Shown here one piece after another: positions 26,133-41,649 of a stretch of DNA of 64,000 bases. Position 1 is the first letter of the stretch, and each line of letters opens with the position of its first letter. This DNA is from Bacteroidota bacterium. Its GTDB lineage: Bacteria; Bacteroidota; Bacteroidia; Bacteroidales; GCA-2748055. The position numbers and the translations under genes are program-made. The notes below the pieces were generated by a model. That model was not told where the DNA came from, made no database searches, and saw only the letters and a program-made list of their open reading frames with translations. The stretch spans positions 16,509-80,508 of the forward strand of contig JBDLIX010000005.1 in assembly GCA_039714655.1 (NCBI GenBank). The letters are read 5' to 3'.

Positions 26133-27023
26133 TTGGAAATTAGAATTAAAAATTTAGGCAAGACATATCCGGGAGGATTTCAAGCCCTGGATAACATCGA
26201 TCTGAACATATCCGAGGGTATGTTTGGCCTCCTGGGACCCAACGGAGCTGGGAAATCAACGCTCATGCGAATTCTGGTTACACTGATGAAACCTACTTCA
26301 GGAGAGGTGCTGATCGACGGAAAGAATATCAATAGCTACAGAAAGGAGATCAGAAAGATGGTGGGTTATCTTCCCCAGGATTTCCGCTTTTTCACAAAAC
26401 TTCGTTCCTGGGAATTTCTCGATTATGCAGCAAGGCTGGCTGGAATGAATCTCAGAAAGGAGCGCAGGGAGAGGGTGGACGAAATGCTGGAGAGTGTCGG
26501 GTTGTACGAATTCAGGAACCGAATGGCCAACAAGTTGTCGGGAGGAATGAAGCGAAGATTGGGTATCGCACAGGCATTGATTGCCCGCCCATCCATCATT
26601 ATTGTGGACGAACCTACAACAGGACTGGATCCTGAAGAGCGCATCAGGTTCAGGAATCTCCTCTCTGACCTGGGTCGGAGCGATACGATTATTATCCTAT
26701 CCACCCACATTGTTGGGGATATCTCCAGCACCTGTAACCAGATGGCATTGCTGAATGAAGGTGCATTAATCTATGAAGGAACCCCCGATCAACTGGTTGA
26801 CCAGGCGAAAGGATATGTATGGAGAACTGAGGTTAGTCAGGAGGAATATGAACAAATGAAGGATGAGTTCCCCATCATATCAACCATTCCATCGGGAACC
26901 GGATGGGAGGTGCAGTTTGTGGGAGAAAAGCCTTCAGGTATTAGTGCTCAAAGGGTCGAACCCAACCTGGAGCACGCTTATGTTCATTACATGGATAATA
27001 AATTAAGTCACTGGAATATATAA
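26133..27023 (+). CDS. ABC transporter ATP-binding protein (ABC-2/DrrA-like subfamily with C-terminal extension)
   Basis: TTG start. Walker A GPNGAGKST, signature LSGGMKRR, Walker B IIIVDEPTTGLD, H-loop LSTHIV. First gene of the 26133..41649 operon. Confidence 0.9.
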   Translation: MEIRIKNLGKTYPGGFQALDNIDLNISEGMFGLLGPNGAGKSTLMRILVTLMKPTSGEVLIDGKNINSYRKEIRKMVGYLPQDFRFFTKLRSWEFLDYAARLAGMNLRKERRERVDEMLESVGLYEFRNRMANKLSGGMKRRLGIAQALIARPSIIIVDEPTTGLDPEERIRFRNLLSDLGRSDTIIILSTHIVGDISSTCNQMALLNEGALIYEGTPDQLVDQAKGYVWRTEVSQEEYEQMKDEFPIISTIPSGTGWEVQFVGEKPSGISAQRVEPNLEHAYVHYMDNKLSHWNI

Positions 27024-30000
27024 TGAACCTGCATAACATATGGAACATAGCCACTTATGAAAGCAAGACACTTTTCAGAAGCTGGTTTTTCAGAATCTTT
27101 TCCATGCTGGCACTGTTCTTTCTGTTTGGGATCAATACCGGTTTTTTTGGAGACCACGGTGGTGCAAGGTGGACCACACGGGCCATAGCAGCAAATCTGC
27201 CTTATATTAATGTGCTGTTTATAAACGTAGCACAGGCTGTGATCGCTGTTTTTCTGGCTTCCGATTTTTTGAAAAGGGATAAAAAACTGGACACTACTGA
27301 AGTGATCTACGCACGACCCATCACAAATGGAGAATATGTGGTGGGGAAAACCCTTGGGATCCTGGTTCTGTTTATTGGATTGGTAGTGCTGGCACTCGCC
27401 ATGTCGCTGATCTTTAACCTGATCAGACAGGATGTCCCCGTTGTTTGGGAAGCATATCTCTACTACCCCTTACTGATCACTGTCCCCACATTGGTATTTA
27501 TCCTTGGACTCTCTTTTTTCATGATGATCCTGTTCCGTAGTCAGGCCGTCACCTTCCTGGTTTTGCTGGGCTATATCGGACTTACACTTGCCTATTTCCA
27601 GGACAAAGCGTACGGAATGCTCGACTACATGGCATTTAACCTGCCCATGGTTTATTCCGATTTTATCCAGTTTGCTGAAATTGACCGGATCATTCTGCAC
27701 CGGCTGGCTTACCTGGCTCTTGGAATAGGTTTTATATTCGCCACCATACGATTCCTGAACAGATTGCCCCAGACAGGAAGGTGGAATATTATTAACCTGA
27801 TCGCATTTCTCCTGTTTCTGTTTGGAGGAGCCGCATTGGGAACCCGGTATTTTTCCATTTTCAAAGAGCAGGCCATGCAACGAGCCGAATTTCTTGAGCT
27901 GAATAACCGGTATGCCAGTAAGGATGTGGTGGATATCGTTGCCAATGATCTGCATGTAATACAACAGGGCAGCAAGCTGGAGGTGATTTCAGAGCTCCGG
28001 GTAAGGAATCCGCACACCCAGCCACTGGACACGCTTATTTTCTCATTAAACCCGGGATTTGTCATTGACAGCATTACCGGCAGGGAGGGTCAGGTTGATT
28101 ATCTCAGGATAAAACAAATTATCCGGATCGTACCGGAGAAGAGTCTGGCCCCGGGTAGAGGGAGCCGGTTTACTTTCTTCTATCATGGAAAACCTATTGA
28201 GTCGGTTGCCTATCTTGATATTCCCAGGGAGCAGGTGGAAGCACTTAAACGAATCCAGGTAGCACCATTAAATAAAGAGCCGGGGATTGTCCACGAGAAC
28301 TACATACTTTTAACACCAGAACTGCTCTGGTATCCTCTGGCTGGTGTAGGCTTCAACATGAAAACATTTCAGCCGCAAGAGATGGATTTTGTTCGGTTTA
28401 GCCTGACCGTTAATCCGGGTGAAGGTTTAACGGCCATTGCCCCGGGGAAAATGACTCAAACGGAGGAGGAGGTCAAATTCGTTCCTGAAAATGATCTGAA
28501 TTCCCTTCCATTGGTGATTGGACCACTGGAGATGAAAAGCATGGAAATTGATGGAGTACAATACAACCTGTACTCAAAACCCGGTCACGATTTCTTCTCA
28601 GAATATTTCACAAATATTACTGATACACTGGGCGTATTGATCAAGGAGGCCAAGGACAATTATGAGTTGGATGAGCTGGATCTTTATTATCCCTTTGAAC
28701 GGATCAACCTGGTAGAGGTTCCCATCCAGTATCATGCTTATGAGCGCCCGTACATTCAAACCGTAGATAATATACTTCCTGAATTAATCCTGTTACCGGA
28801 AAAAGGGGCAGGGATCAATACACTGGATTTTGAACGTTACAAAAAGGCTGCAGAACGTCGTGACAGAGACCGGGAAAATCAGCGAAGTCCCCGGGAGAGA
28901 GAGACGGAACAATTCAAACGTCTGCTACAAAATACCTTCTTCCGGTCGGGTACAACAACCAGATCCAGGGGATTTCGCGGCGGCGGAGAGGGTGGAGAGG
29001 AACTGATTACTTTTCAGGGTGGTTCCAACTATACAAAGAATCCCTATTGTGTCTTTCCACTCTACTACAGCTATGTGACAGGAATTAGTTCGAAGCAGTA
29101 CCCGGTCTTTAACTCCATGATGGAACTCTACCTGAAAGATGGGTTTGAAGTCTCGCCCAGACAGGGCTTTACAGGAGGGATCACCGACCATGAAAGGGCC
29201 AACCTGGCACTACAGGAACGAAACATGATCGATATATTTGCACAGTGGAATACAGAACTTAGCTCCTCACTGATCAACCAGACCGGCAGTTTTATCATTT
29301 CGGCATTGAAAAACCGGGTGGGAATGGGAGACTTTGACTACTTCTTATACTATTACCTGGAGGACCATGCCTTCAAGGAGATATCATTCGAACAGTTTAC
29401 CTCTGATTTTAAAGATGAGTTCGATGTGGATATTGAACCTTACCTGGAGATCATTAATTCGGGAGGAGCGATGGCCACTTTCCTTATCTCCGTACCTGAA
29501 TACATCCAGACCAGGGATGAGATTGGGGATGTATACATAATTCGCTTCAGAATCACCAACGCTGGTAAAGCAAAGGGCATGGTAGACGCCACTTTCCGAA
29601 TCATGGGACAGGGTGGATTTGGGAGTGGTAGTGGCATGAGTACTGAGCAGCGGTTATTTGAAATAGATGCGGGAACCACCAAAGAGGTTCAGGTAGTACT
29701 GTATGACCGGCCCATGATGATGACGGTAAATACGCTCATATCCGGAAATATCCCTTCCAGTTATAATAATTTCTTAAGATCCGCAACCACCGTGGAGAAG
29801 AGTAACCTGGAGGAATATGAACGGCTCAGTGATGATCCTGTAAGTTTTACCTTTAAGGATGAATATGTGGTAGACAATGAAGATGACGGGTTTTCATCTG
29901 TTTCGGTCTCCAGGGAGAGTAAGTTAAAGCAGTATATCGATGCCCGAAAAAAACAGGACGAGACCATCTCTTATGGAAGCCTCAATGAGTGGTGGACGCC

Positions 30001-40931: not shown

Positions 40932-40935
40932 AACT

Positions 40936-41649
40936 ATGTCAGGCTTTAACTCCATATTGCGAAATTTTTACGACCTCTCAAGGTACAACATGAAGATTAT
41001 CTTCGGGGGCAAGTTTATCTATTTTATCCTGGCAGCATTCTTATTCTTCCTTGTATTCGGAACTATTATTGCCCTGGACAGCAATGTAATTTGGACCGCT
41101 GAGATTTACGGACTAGTTGCATTCCCCGCCATTCTTTTGGCCTTTTATCCCTCTGTATTCGGGATTCAGAGTGATGCCGATCAGCGCACCCTGGAGATTA
41201 TTTTTGGCATACCTGATTACCGTTACAAAGTATGGCTTGTCCGGTACTTAATGATTCTATTGATTGTTTTTCTACTGTTATTCCCATTTGCAGCCATTGC
41301 ATATTATTCCCTGATCAGTTTCCCGTTTATGAAGATGGTTCTTCACCTGATGGTTCTGGTACTATTCACCTCTTCCTTGGGATTCTGCCTGTCAACTCTG
41401 TTGAAAAACGGTAATGCCACAGCAGTGATAATGGTCATATTTGGTCTGGTGTTTCTGATCTTAGCTGATGAGCTGTACACATCCAAGTGGAATGTTTTTT
41501 TAAATCCGTTTCCAAACTTAGAAAATATCAATGCCATTGTGTGGCAGGAGACCCTCCGGCAGAACCGCATCATTATGGGCATCGTCAGCGTGCTCCTTCT
41601 CCTGCTGGGGCTGCTGAACCTGCAGCAGAGAGAGAAGTTCCTGAGGTAG
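40936..41649 (+). CDS. ABC-2-type transporter permease-like membrane protein
   Basis: 237 aa with about six hydrophobic helices. The ATG lies 4 nt after the stop of the fusion gene. The 5' part of the listed ORF (40753..) overlaps the preceding CDS and was rejected. Confidence 0.7.
   Translation: MSGFNSILRNFYDLSRYNMKIIFGGKFIYFILAAFLFFLVFGTIIALDSNVIWTAEIYGLVAFPAILLAFYPSVFGIQSDADQRTLEIIFGIPDYRYKVWLVRYLMILLIVFLLLFPFAAIAYYSLISFPFMKMVLHLMVLVLFTSSLGFCLSTLLKNGNATAVIMVIFGLVFLILADELYTSKWNVFLNPFPNLENINAIVWQETLRQNRIIMGIVSVLLLLLGLLNLQQREKFLR

Follow-up and report, generated by a model that had tools for sequence, protein, structure and literature searches.

Can an ATP-driven exporter and a proton-driven efflux pump be parts of the same machine? 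Tripartite efflux pumps are sorted by their source of energy: resistance-nodulation-division (RND) and major facilitator superfamily pumps draw on the proton gradient, and ATP-binding cassette (ABC) pumps on ATP. The question is raised by a stretch of DNA of 64,000 nucleotides (nt), here called the window, from a Bacteroidota bacterium (Bacteroidales, GCA-2748055; assembly GCA_039714655.1, contig JBDLIX010000005.1, positions 16,509–80,508 of the forward strand). An earlier note on this DNA had described a seven-gene operon in which ABC parts stand beside a TolC/adaptor/double-RND pump and in which one RND subunit continues into an ABC ATPase. All parts of this cassette, whose genes we call g1 to g7, come from known superfamilies, and it is their combination that is unusual. 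We tentatively favour the reading, to which we give nearly as much chance of being right as of being wrong, that the seven genes encode one envelope-spanning export machine with two kinds of motor, an ABC-2 stage feeding an RND/adaptor/TolC stage.

The cassette comprises seven co-directional open reading frames (ORFs) at 26133–41649 on the forward strand, with checked coordinates (Table 1). The gene order, domains and junctions given by the earlier note were borne out by these coordinates and by domain searches. The first two genes share a 1-nt TAATG overlap at 27023, g5 and g6 overlap by 8 nt (36207–36214), and only 4 nt separate g6 from g7. Gaps of 19 nt each lie between g3 and g4 and between g4 and g5, and the gap between g2 and g3 is 31 or 40 nt depending on whether the TTG or the ATG start of g3 is used. 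From these junctions and the synteny described below, we infer a single transcript for the cassette. A σ70 promoter and terminator scan gave counts at chance (35 versus 28.4±5.3 and 15 versus 16.4±5.4, respectively) with a scan model that is not suited to Bacteroidota promoters, and no Rfam RNA family was found anywhere in the 64 kb.

Table 1. Genes and protein segments of the cassette, and the location of its rearranged variant.
Feature	Position	Strand	Description
g1	26133–27023	+	Free ABC ATPase, 296 residues; DrrA/GldA-like, ABC-2 type, with C-terminal accessory domain
g2	27023–30466	+	1147 residues; weak ABC-2 membrane match N-terminal, Golvesin_C C-terminal
g2, residues 1–297	27023–27913	+	Putative ABC-2-type membrane domain plus extra seventh helix
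g2, residues ~300–815	27920–29467	+	M1-aminopeptidase-like fold without catalytic zinc site
g2, residues ~820–1147	29480–30466	+	β-sandwich domains; Golvesin_C at residues 1079–1143
g3	30498 (TTG) or 30507 (ATG) to 32012	+	TolC-type outer-membrane factor, 504 residues
g4	32032–33093	+	Periplasmic adaptor (membrane-fusion) lipoprotein, 353 residues
g5	33113–36214	+	RND permease 1, full-length, 1033 residues
g6	36207–40931	+	1574 residues; RND domain (residues 4–1038) and ABC ATPase domain (1297–1441)
g6, residues 1–1040	36207–39326	+	RND permease 2, ACR_tran
g6, residues ~1043–1102	39333–39512	+	Hairpin; two extra membrane helices after RND transmembrane helix 12, from hydropathy
g6, residues 1113–1128	39543–39590	+	SIHIEVSNLVKIYGRE; predicted first β-strand of the fused ATPase, detached from its core, with the A-loop tyrosine
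g6, residues 1129–1293	39591–40085	+	Insertion; two amphipathic arms around about four membrane helices, from hydropathy
g6, residues 1294–1574	40086–40931	+	ATPase core and C-terminal accessory domain (PF00005, 2.1e-27)
g7	40936–41649	+	Small six-helix multi-spanning membrane protein, 237 residues
Rearranged variant (L087/L088, metagenome contigs, GC 58%)	586–16192 (contig positions)		RND-2::ATPase 1441 residues; outer-membrane factor 602 residues

Evidence that the fusion is genuine came from a search of about 5.8 billion proteins, clustered at 90% identity and with the 120 best matches listed. More than 120 clusters of proteins of 1550–1600 residues match 99–100% of the length of g6, with both Pfam domains present. 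The 120 best matches go down to 63% identity and originate from NCBI, ENA, JGI and Logan. When the C-terminal 535 residues served as query in an exhaustive, profile-free search, full-length fusions were recovered down to 34% identity in that region. The claim of an RND permease and an ABC ATPase in one polypeptide is thus confirmed as a conserved architecture rather than an assembly artefact. A read-through, in which a sequencing or assembly error joined an RND gene to an ABC gene, has nothing in its favour beyond the unusual architecture; we reject it as having practically no chance of being correct, since hundreds of full-length homologues have independent origins, with complete genomes and cultured strains among them, and the linker itself is conserved. 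Automatic annotations name the fusion “efflux RND transporter permease subunit”, “ATP-binding cassette domain-containing protein” or “AcrB/ABC-type ... ATPase”.

We found no genuine split version; of the three apparently unfused matches (approximately 500–540 residues), one was viewed in context. This match, P0339 (539 residues), was rejected as an unfused version: it lies on a contig of 2x coverage with an overlapping RND fragment directly upstream, the pattern of a frameshift. P0256 and P0263 are the two other short matches with the linker region. The remaining short cluster members proved to be fragments of short contigs and were likewise discarded.

The architecture of the fusion protein is more elaborate than a simple joining of two domains would suggest. 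Behind the RND part, the predicted hairpin shows conserved Trp, Gly and Pro positions in ortholog alignments, and after the insertion the segment FKALKGVSLQIGTGMFGLLGPNGAGKST begins the remainder of the ATPase. When SIHIEVSNLVKIYGRE, which lies between hairpin and insertion, was spliced onto residues 1291–1574, the start of the match to the GldA model moved from position 16 to position 2 with a gain of 9 bits, and other ABC models shifted likewise. Within this segment, Tyr1126 is a tyrosine in 75 of 76 orthologues and a phenylalanine in the other. Taken together with the intervening helices, the gain upon splicing and the conservation of Tyr1126 suggest that the g6 ATPase is split by a membrane insertion of approximately 165 residues. 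The predicted topology is consistent with this arrangement: the RND C-terminus would lie inside, followed by two helices, the strand inside, four helices and the ATPase inside. Many Trp, Pro and Phe positions of the insertion are invariant, and the region from the linker through the ATPase aligns in an Acidobacteriota fusion at 34% identity. In a short-linker variant of the fusion, described below, the insertion site holds about 45 residues and no membrane helices. We considered whether the linker helices of g6 represent a hidden ABC-2 domain and discarded this idea, as they share no similarity with g7 or the g2 N-terminus and are absent from the variant. An AlphaFold2 model of residues 1040–1574, built from 10 sequences, was too poor to use (pLDDT 63, pTM 0.41). 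The periplasmic domain of the RND part also contains a glycine-rich low-complexity loop, GMSGNRGNGGGGGGGNNQAGAAGFQQLLGIGEDEE (residues ~640–680, 38124–38246), which is partly conserved in orthologues.

Conservation extends from the fusion to the whole cassette. A scan of GTDB r232, with one genome per species, returned at least 581 relatives; the best 80 loci were fetched and searched with the window proteins by tblastn, and the locus counts given here refer to these 80. Wherever enough upstream DNA is available (58 of 58 loci), the genes g2, g3, g4 and g5 stand in this order ahead of g6, and in all 51 loci that reach that far g1 immediately precedes g2. Likewise, g7 follows g6 within 1 kb wherever enough downstream DNA is available (68 of 68 loci). 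The arrangement is therefore more than chance, recurring in every related locus that is long enough. Two possibilities raised in the earlier note, that the ABC and RND parts are normally unlinked elsewhere or that the arrangement is confined to this genome, do not describe what was found; the two parts are linked in every such upstream and downstream locus, and in several phyla. Carriers include many Bacteroidales metagenome-assembled genomes (MAGs), one Melioribacteraceae MAG (Ignavibacteriota) and the cultured Prolixibacteraceae Prolixibacter bellariivorans ATCC BAA-1284, Mariniphaga sediminis SY21 and two Gaoshiqia species, one of them with a complete genome. In one MAG (L011, 813–4254), the g2 orthologue was recovered in four tblastn pieces, which suggests frameshifts, due either to a pseudogene or to an assembly error.

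The flanks behave differently from the cassette. No flanking family that could represent a regulator, a biosynthesis gene or a clue to the substrate occurs in more than 5 of the fetched loci. The neighbours in the window itself (a Spy-like gene, a 271-residue ORF, GH20 and NagX-like genes) are linked to the cassette only in its closest relatives. Since the flanks are not conserved, we define the unit as g1 to g7.

This pattern bears on one alternative to a single machine, namely that two or three independent pumps share an operon, handle the same toxic compound in parallel and are fused only for co-expression or co-localisation. Each module does appear complete on its own, the one with ATPase and permease and the other with RND subunits, adaptor and outer-membrane factor, and ABC-2 permeases fused to M1 domains stand alone elsewhere (TC 3.A.1.145; PMC3924187). 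However, a conserved fusion, a dedicated membrane anchor and strict co-inheritance exceed what is usual for co-regulation, and no genuine split version was found, with one apparently unfused match viewed in context. We regard independent pumps as distinctly unlikely.

Both ATPases carry the complete set of catalytic motifs. The free ATPase g1 matches PF00005 ABC_tran with an E-value of 1.5e-34 and shares 43.7% identity with the fused ATPase of g6, the C-terminal accessory domain included. The Walker A lysine, Q-loop glutamine, signature SGG, Walker B Asp-Glu, D-loop aspartate and H-loop histidine are invariant in 60 g1 and 76 g6 orthologues, and the ATPase segment is the most conserved part of g6 (mean top-residue frequency 0.84). 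The best NCBIfam matches of g1 are DrrA TIGR01188 (203 versus a cut-off of 312) and GldA TIGR03522 (191 versus 402.6), both below the cut-offs, as are the scores of g6 against the DrrA and GldA models (176 and 177 bits). RbbA is also among the NCBIfam matches.

The RND modules were assessed in the same way. ACR_tran matches residues 5–1017 of g5 (1.1e-213) and residues 4–1038 of g6 (7.2e-161), and the two RND sequences are 27.5% identical. Against NCBIfam RND_permease_2, g5 and g6 score 577 and 443 bits versus a cut-off of 1250, and both fall far below the MdtB and MdtC cut-offs. Residues of the proton relay were compared in an alignment of 69 g5 and 77 g6 sequences with E. coli AcrB, MdtB and MdtC. 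No sequence of either set deviates at the positions equivalent to AcrB D407 and R971, and the T978 equivalent is invariant in the 77 g6 sequences and kept in 66 of the 69 g5 sequences. In both paralogues the D408 position is occupied by asparagine, serine or threonine (in g5 the latter two are rare) and the K940 position by asparagine. Neither paralogue looks degenerate by these residues, and the relay differs from the AcrB type. With the catalytic motifs intact and the relay Asp, Arg and Thr kept, the ATPases and the RND modules look functional, although the relay is a partial one of an uncharacterised type.

The adaptor g4 matches the RND adaptor family TIGR01730 with 200.8 bits versus a cut-off of 94.9, as well as HlyD_D23 and HlyD_3, and has an N-terminal signal peptide with a cysteine at “LLVSC”. 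In g3, PF02321 OEP is matched in two stretches (3.3e-49).

The 1147-residue protein g2 had been described as a giant ABC-2-like permease, which probably holds for its N-terminus, where the match to ABC2_membrane_2 is weak (2.9e-5; 23.9 bits versus a gathering score of 27.2). The remainder of the protein is of another kind, an M1-aminopeptidase-like domain without zinc motif followed by Golvesin_C (PF25275, 1.3e-12; 48.4 bits versus a cut-off of 31.6), and the model shows β-strands in the C-terminal part (residues ~820–1147). By sequence, g2 found no match in the PDB. An AlphaFold2 model, built from 24 sequences with a pLDDT of 70.7, begins with a helical membrane domain and a long seventh helix, which are followed by a β-sandwich, then by an α/β domain, another helical domain and further β-domains. 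Based on hydropathy and the helices of this model, the seventh helix is predicted to place the remainder of the protein outside the cytoplasm. Foldseek comparison of the model with the PDB returned IRAP, ERAP1/2 and bacterial M1 enzymes with E-values of about 1e-14 to 3e-17 and a probability of 1.0; the TM-scores to IRAP and ERAP1 are modest (0.27–0.36), this being a multi-domain model of medium confidence. HEXXH and GXMEN are absent from g2, and HEXXH is also absent from 54 orthologues. One orthologue gave a faint Peptidase_M1 match. Because the zinc motif is missing, the middle part is predicted to be a catalytically dead pseudo-peptidase. Glycine-rich loops occur at residues ~650–660, ~865–875 and ~1055–1075, with low confidence in the model.

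These periplasmic domains invite a different account of the ABC part, in which it moves nothing across the inner membrane. Instead, ATP would move the periplasmic domain of g2, as in MacB, LolCDE, FtsEX and NosDFY, and this domain would capture a substrate from the periplasm or outer leaflet and load it into the RND pump, or hold and release it. In support of such a mechanotransmission loader, g2 devotes about 850 residues to periplasmic domains of substrate-binding type fold (M1-like without zinc site, Golvesin_C). It is also the fastest-evolving component, with a median identity of 35% versus 45–62% for the others (62% for the g1 query), which fits contact with a variable ligand, and JGI names its orthologues after the NosY-type permease. 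However, the membrane domains look like ABC-2 (type V) domains and unlike the four-helix MacB/FtsX type, and g7 lacks a periplasmic domain. On balance we consider this loader unlikely, though not negligibly so.

The small membrane protein g7 has no Pfam match of its own; some of its orthologues show weak ABC2_membrane_2/3 matches, a few of them reaching an E-value of about 0.003. The orthologues are uniformly about 238 residues long and share the motif “FGIQNDxDARxLEILFGIPxYRYKVW”. A profile alignment of g7 with the g2 N-terminus is colinear and weak (E 0.078), and the g7 motif lines up with the ABC-2 motif of g2. The g7 protein is probably a divergent ABC-2 permease. The two ABC-2 modules of the earlier note may be one heterodimeric ABC-2 transporter.

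Outside Bacteroidota and Ignavibacteriota, the cassette appears in altered form. Judged by cluster names, more distant fusions belong to Acidobacteriota, Latescibacterota and candidate division KSB1. In an Acidobacteriota MAG the order is ATPase, big protein, adaptor, RND-1, RND-2::ATPase and small permease, with junctions that are 1- or 4-nt overlaps, and a marine contig, whose fusion-protein cluster includes proteins of Latescibacterota MAGs, has the same order. An outer-membrane factor gene is absent from the cassettes of both the Acidobacteriota MAG and the marine, Latescibacterota-like contig, whereas the TolC gene (g3) is present in the loci of the genome collection (Bacteroidota, Ignavibacteriota). 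The TolC gene is thus an optional insert, in some phyla, in a core of six genes.

A second type of fusion, approximately 1420–1470 residues long and with a short linker, was found in MAGs labelled Omnitrophota, Hinthialibacter and BRC1. A rearranged cassette whose fusion protein is of this family (L087/L088) reads adaptor, ATPase, 267-residue ABC-2 permease, RND-1, 902-residue g2-like protein, RND-2::ATPase and outer-membrane factor. Its free ATPase is 43% identical to g1 versus 38% to the fused ATPase of g6, and its fused ATPase is 45% identical to that of g6 versus 41% to g1. As each is nearer to its own counterpart, the two ATPases are old, distinct paralogues that predate the rearrangement, which is what a heterodimer would lead one to expect. 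That all seven kinds of component recur in a second gene order argues that linkage reflects function and not inherited order. Altogether, fusion and co-inheritance hold in two gene orders and in no fewer than eight phylum-level lineages. A linkage that has outlasted the divergence of phyla as well as the reshuffling of genes is strong evidence that the ABC and RND parts work together. We had also considered an argument from gene adjacency swapped between the variants and dropped it, because the small permease of the rearranged cassette is equally weakly similar to g7 and to the g2 N-terminus. On two JGI contigs (L083/L084), a 1423-residue short-linker RND::ATPase fusion (2276–6547) follows an overlapping upstream gene; downstream on these short contigs there is no small permease, and a zinc-ribbon protein, a diacylglycerol kinase and a glycosyltransferase are encoded.

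The rearranged cassette also bears on the idea that the RND pump is the sole transporter and that the ATPases and small membrane proteins serve to open, assemble or reset the RND/adaptor/TolC complex. The covalent bond between the ATPase and an RND protomer, and the anchoring of the ATPase through its conserved membrane insertion, would suit such control, as would the lack of any detectable substrate-related neighbour. A pure switch, however, would need neither two full ATPases, two ABC-2-like domains nor an 850-residue periplasmic domain, all of them strictly conserved, and the rearranged variant dispenses with the membrane insertion yet keeps every ABC part. We know of no ATP-gated RND pump that has been described, and we judge ATP gating or assembly control of this kind very unlikely.

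Our preferred reading of one export machine with two kinds of motor would work as follows. By analogy with MdtB and MdtC, g5 and the RND part of g6 would form a mixed RND trimer, operating with the g4 adaptor and the TolC-like channel g3. The ATPase fused to g6 would pair with the free ATPase g1, and the membrane domains of g2 and g7 would pair to complete one heterodimeric ABC-2 (type V) transporter. The fusion, the hairpin of two helices and the ATPase insertion with its four helices would keep this transporter in place against the RND trimer. ATP hydrolysis would lift an amphipathic substrate out of the cytoplasm or the inner membrane, the periplasmic pseudo-aminopeptidase and lectin-like domain of g2 would receive or guide it, and the proton-driven RND stage would push it through the adaptor/TolC duct across the outer membrane. 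Type V ABCA transporters, which pass lipids to large extracellular domains, offer a precedent. From the domains of g2, one might guess at a peptide-like substrate, a lipopeptide or a glycolipid.

A more specific form of this reading, which we consider possible but doubtful, holds that a single transport cycle couples ATP hydrolysis to the proton-motive force, which would make the cassette the first of a new class of tripartite efflux machines. In this form the heterodimeric ABC-2 transporter (g1/g2 with the g6 ATPase and g7) would be docked on, and covalently tied to, one protomer of the mixed RND trimer, and the substrate would go straight from the ABC stage through the pseudo-aminopeptidase domain to the RND/adaptor/TolC duct. 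The two motors would then be linked mechanically by the split, membrane-anchored ATPase.

Several points weigh against the two-motor machine. The split-ATPase interpretation, including how the insertion folds and where the strand docks, comes from sequence, the AlphaFold2 model of residues 1040–1574 being poor. The assignment of g7 to the ABC-2 permeases is weak, and the data may fit two homodimeric ABC transporters as well as one heterodimeric one. The covalent link is the extent of the contact seen between the ABC and RND parts. Both RND paralogues lack the D408 and K940 equivalents, so that their proton coupling would be of an uncharacterised type. Finally, with no conserved biosynthetic or regulatory neighbour, the locus gives nothing firm on the substrate.

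Beyond the cassette, the window contains genes that appear unrelated to it. On the reverse strand at 25519–25983, a gene encodes a 154-residue secreted protein with an LTXXQ-like “LTKEQ” and a charged region that looks by eye like a coiled coil. The Spy/CpxP-like neighbour of the original description stands as far as this motif and a resemblance by eye are concerned; no NCBIfam family is matched, and the one Pfam hit, a weak match to Myb_DNA-bind_4 (E 0.0014), falls below the cut-off. The gene lies beside the cassette only in the closest relative (L003), and we therefore do not count it as part of the system. Its stretch GQGGGQGGGPGAGRG is similar to the glycine-rich loop of g6. Downstream of the cassette, at 41666–43968 on the forward strand, a GH20-like hexosaminidase gene, with an AT-rich gap ahead of its likely ATG at 41702, and a gene for a NagX-like membrane acetyltransferase homologue overlap by 4 nt. 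Their linkage to the cassette is confined to close relatives (L003, L011 and L013), and they are probably a separate pair for amino-sugar utilisation. Glycan-degradation genes typical of Bacteroidales occupy 16279–24123 and 46438–47808 (ThuA, an Lcl_C-domain protein, a pyridoxal-phosphate enzyme, a PhoD-like phosphatase, GH2 and a sulfatase). Two divergent DEAD-box helicase genes stand back to back, 13 nt apart, at 48542–49978 (reverse strand) and 49992–51236 (forward strand).

If the two motors are indeed joined, partly in one polypeptide, the cassette would embody a design principle that is new for transport across two membranes. It would also provide a physical model for two-stage efflux, which has so far been deduced only from the way separate pumps cooperate genetically. 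Two structural novelties would be added, an ABC ATPase interrupted by a membrane insertion and a dead M1 aminopeptidase domain serving as a periplasmic transporter module. As the cassette is present in cultured strains (P. bellariivorans, M. sediminis and Gaoshiqia spp.), these predictions are directly testable.

How, then, does the cassette relate to known systems? Full-text literature searches and a comprehensive 2021 review of tripartite systems yielded no description of an RND-ABC fusion, with TCDB and subscription journals outside the scope of this survey; within it, the outcome agrees with the earlier note, which knew of no characterised system that combines both energy classes in one operon or polypeptide. 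Unusual features are the RND::ABC fusion, the predicted split membrane-anchored ATPase, the pseudo-aminopeptidase permease, and the occurrence of the whole in many phyla and in two gene orders.

For the RND stage, the closest comparison is E. coli MdtABC-TolC, in which a pair of RND paralogues, likewise in tandem and translationally coupled, goes with a single adaptor and a TolC-type channel. Among solved proteins, the best relative of the g6 RND part is MdtB, and the D407, R971 and T978 equivalents are kept. In contrast to MdtABC, g5 and g6 show the low mutual identity given above and both lack the D408 and K940 equivalents, one of the RND subunits is extended by six membrane helices and an ABC ATPase, and four ABC-related parts are encoded in the cassette.

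For the ABC stage, E. coli YbhGFSR and RbbA-YhhJ-YhiI are ABC-2 exporters encoded together with a membrane-fusion adaptor. They share with the cassette ABC-2-type ATPases, the co-encoded adaptor and, if g2 and g7 are assigned correctly, two different ABC-2 membrane subunits, but the known representatives have neither an RND component or fusion nor a periplasmic M1-like domain, and their ATPases are unsplit. MacAB-TolC resembles the cassette in combining an ATP-driven module that has a periplasmic domain with an adaptor and TolC. MacB, however, is a type VII ABC protein with four helices, an FtsX-type fold and its periplasmic domain between transmembrane helices 1 and 2; in g2 this domain is C-terminal, after the seventh helix, and MacAB has no RND partner. 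Consistent with this difference, the Pfam families FtsX and MacB_PCD have no match in any of the seven cassette proteins.

The architecture of g2 itself has a parallel in the functionally uncharacterised family TC 3.A.1.145, in which an ABC-2 permease is fused to a Peptidase M1 domain, as in Q1D520 of M. xanthus (PMC3924187). By the family description, these proteins appear to share with g2 an N-terminal ABC-2 membrane domain and a C-terminal M1-type domain, and some members are annotated as NosY-like, as are g2 orthologues. The g2 protein differs in having approximately 7 helices versus 13, no HEXXH motif and an additional Golvesin_C domain, and it is always found within the RND cassette. At the level of the whole process, single-component inner-membrane pumps reportedly cooperate with AcrAB-TolC in a two-stage efflux inferred from genetics, in which a first transporter delivers the substrate to the periplasm and the RND pump then carries it across the outer membrane. 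Whereas those pumps are separate and unlinked, the two stages of the cassette are co-encoded and partly fused.

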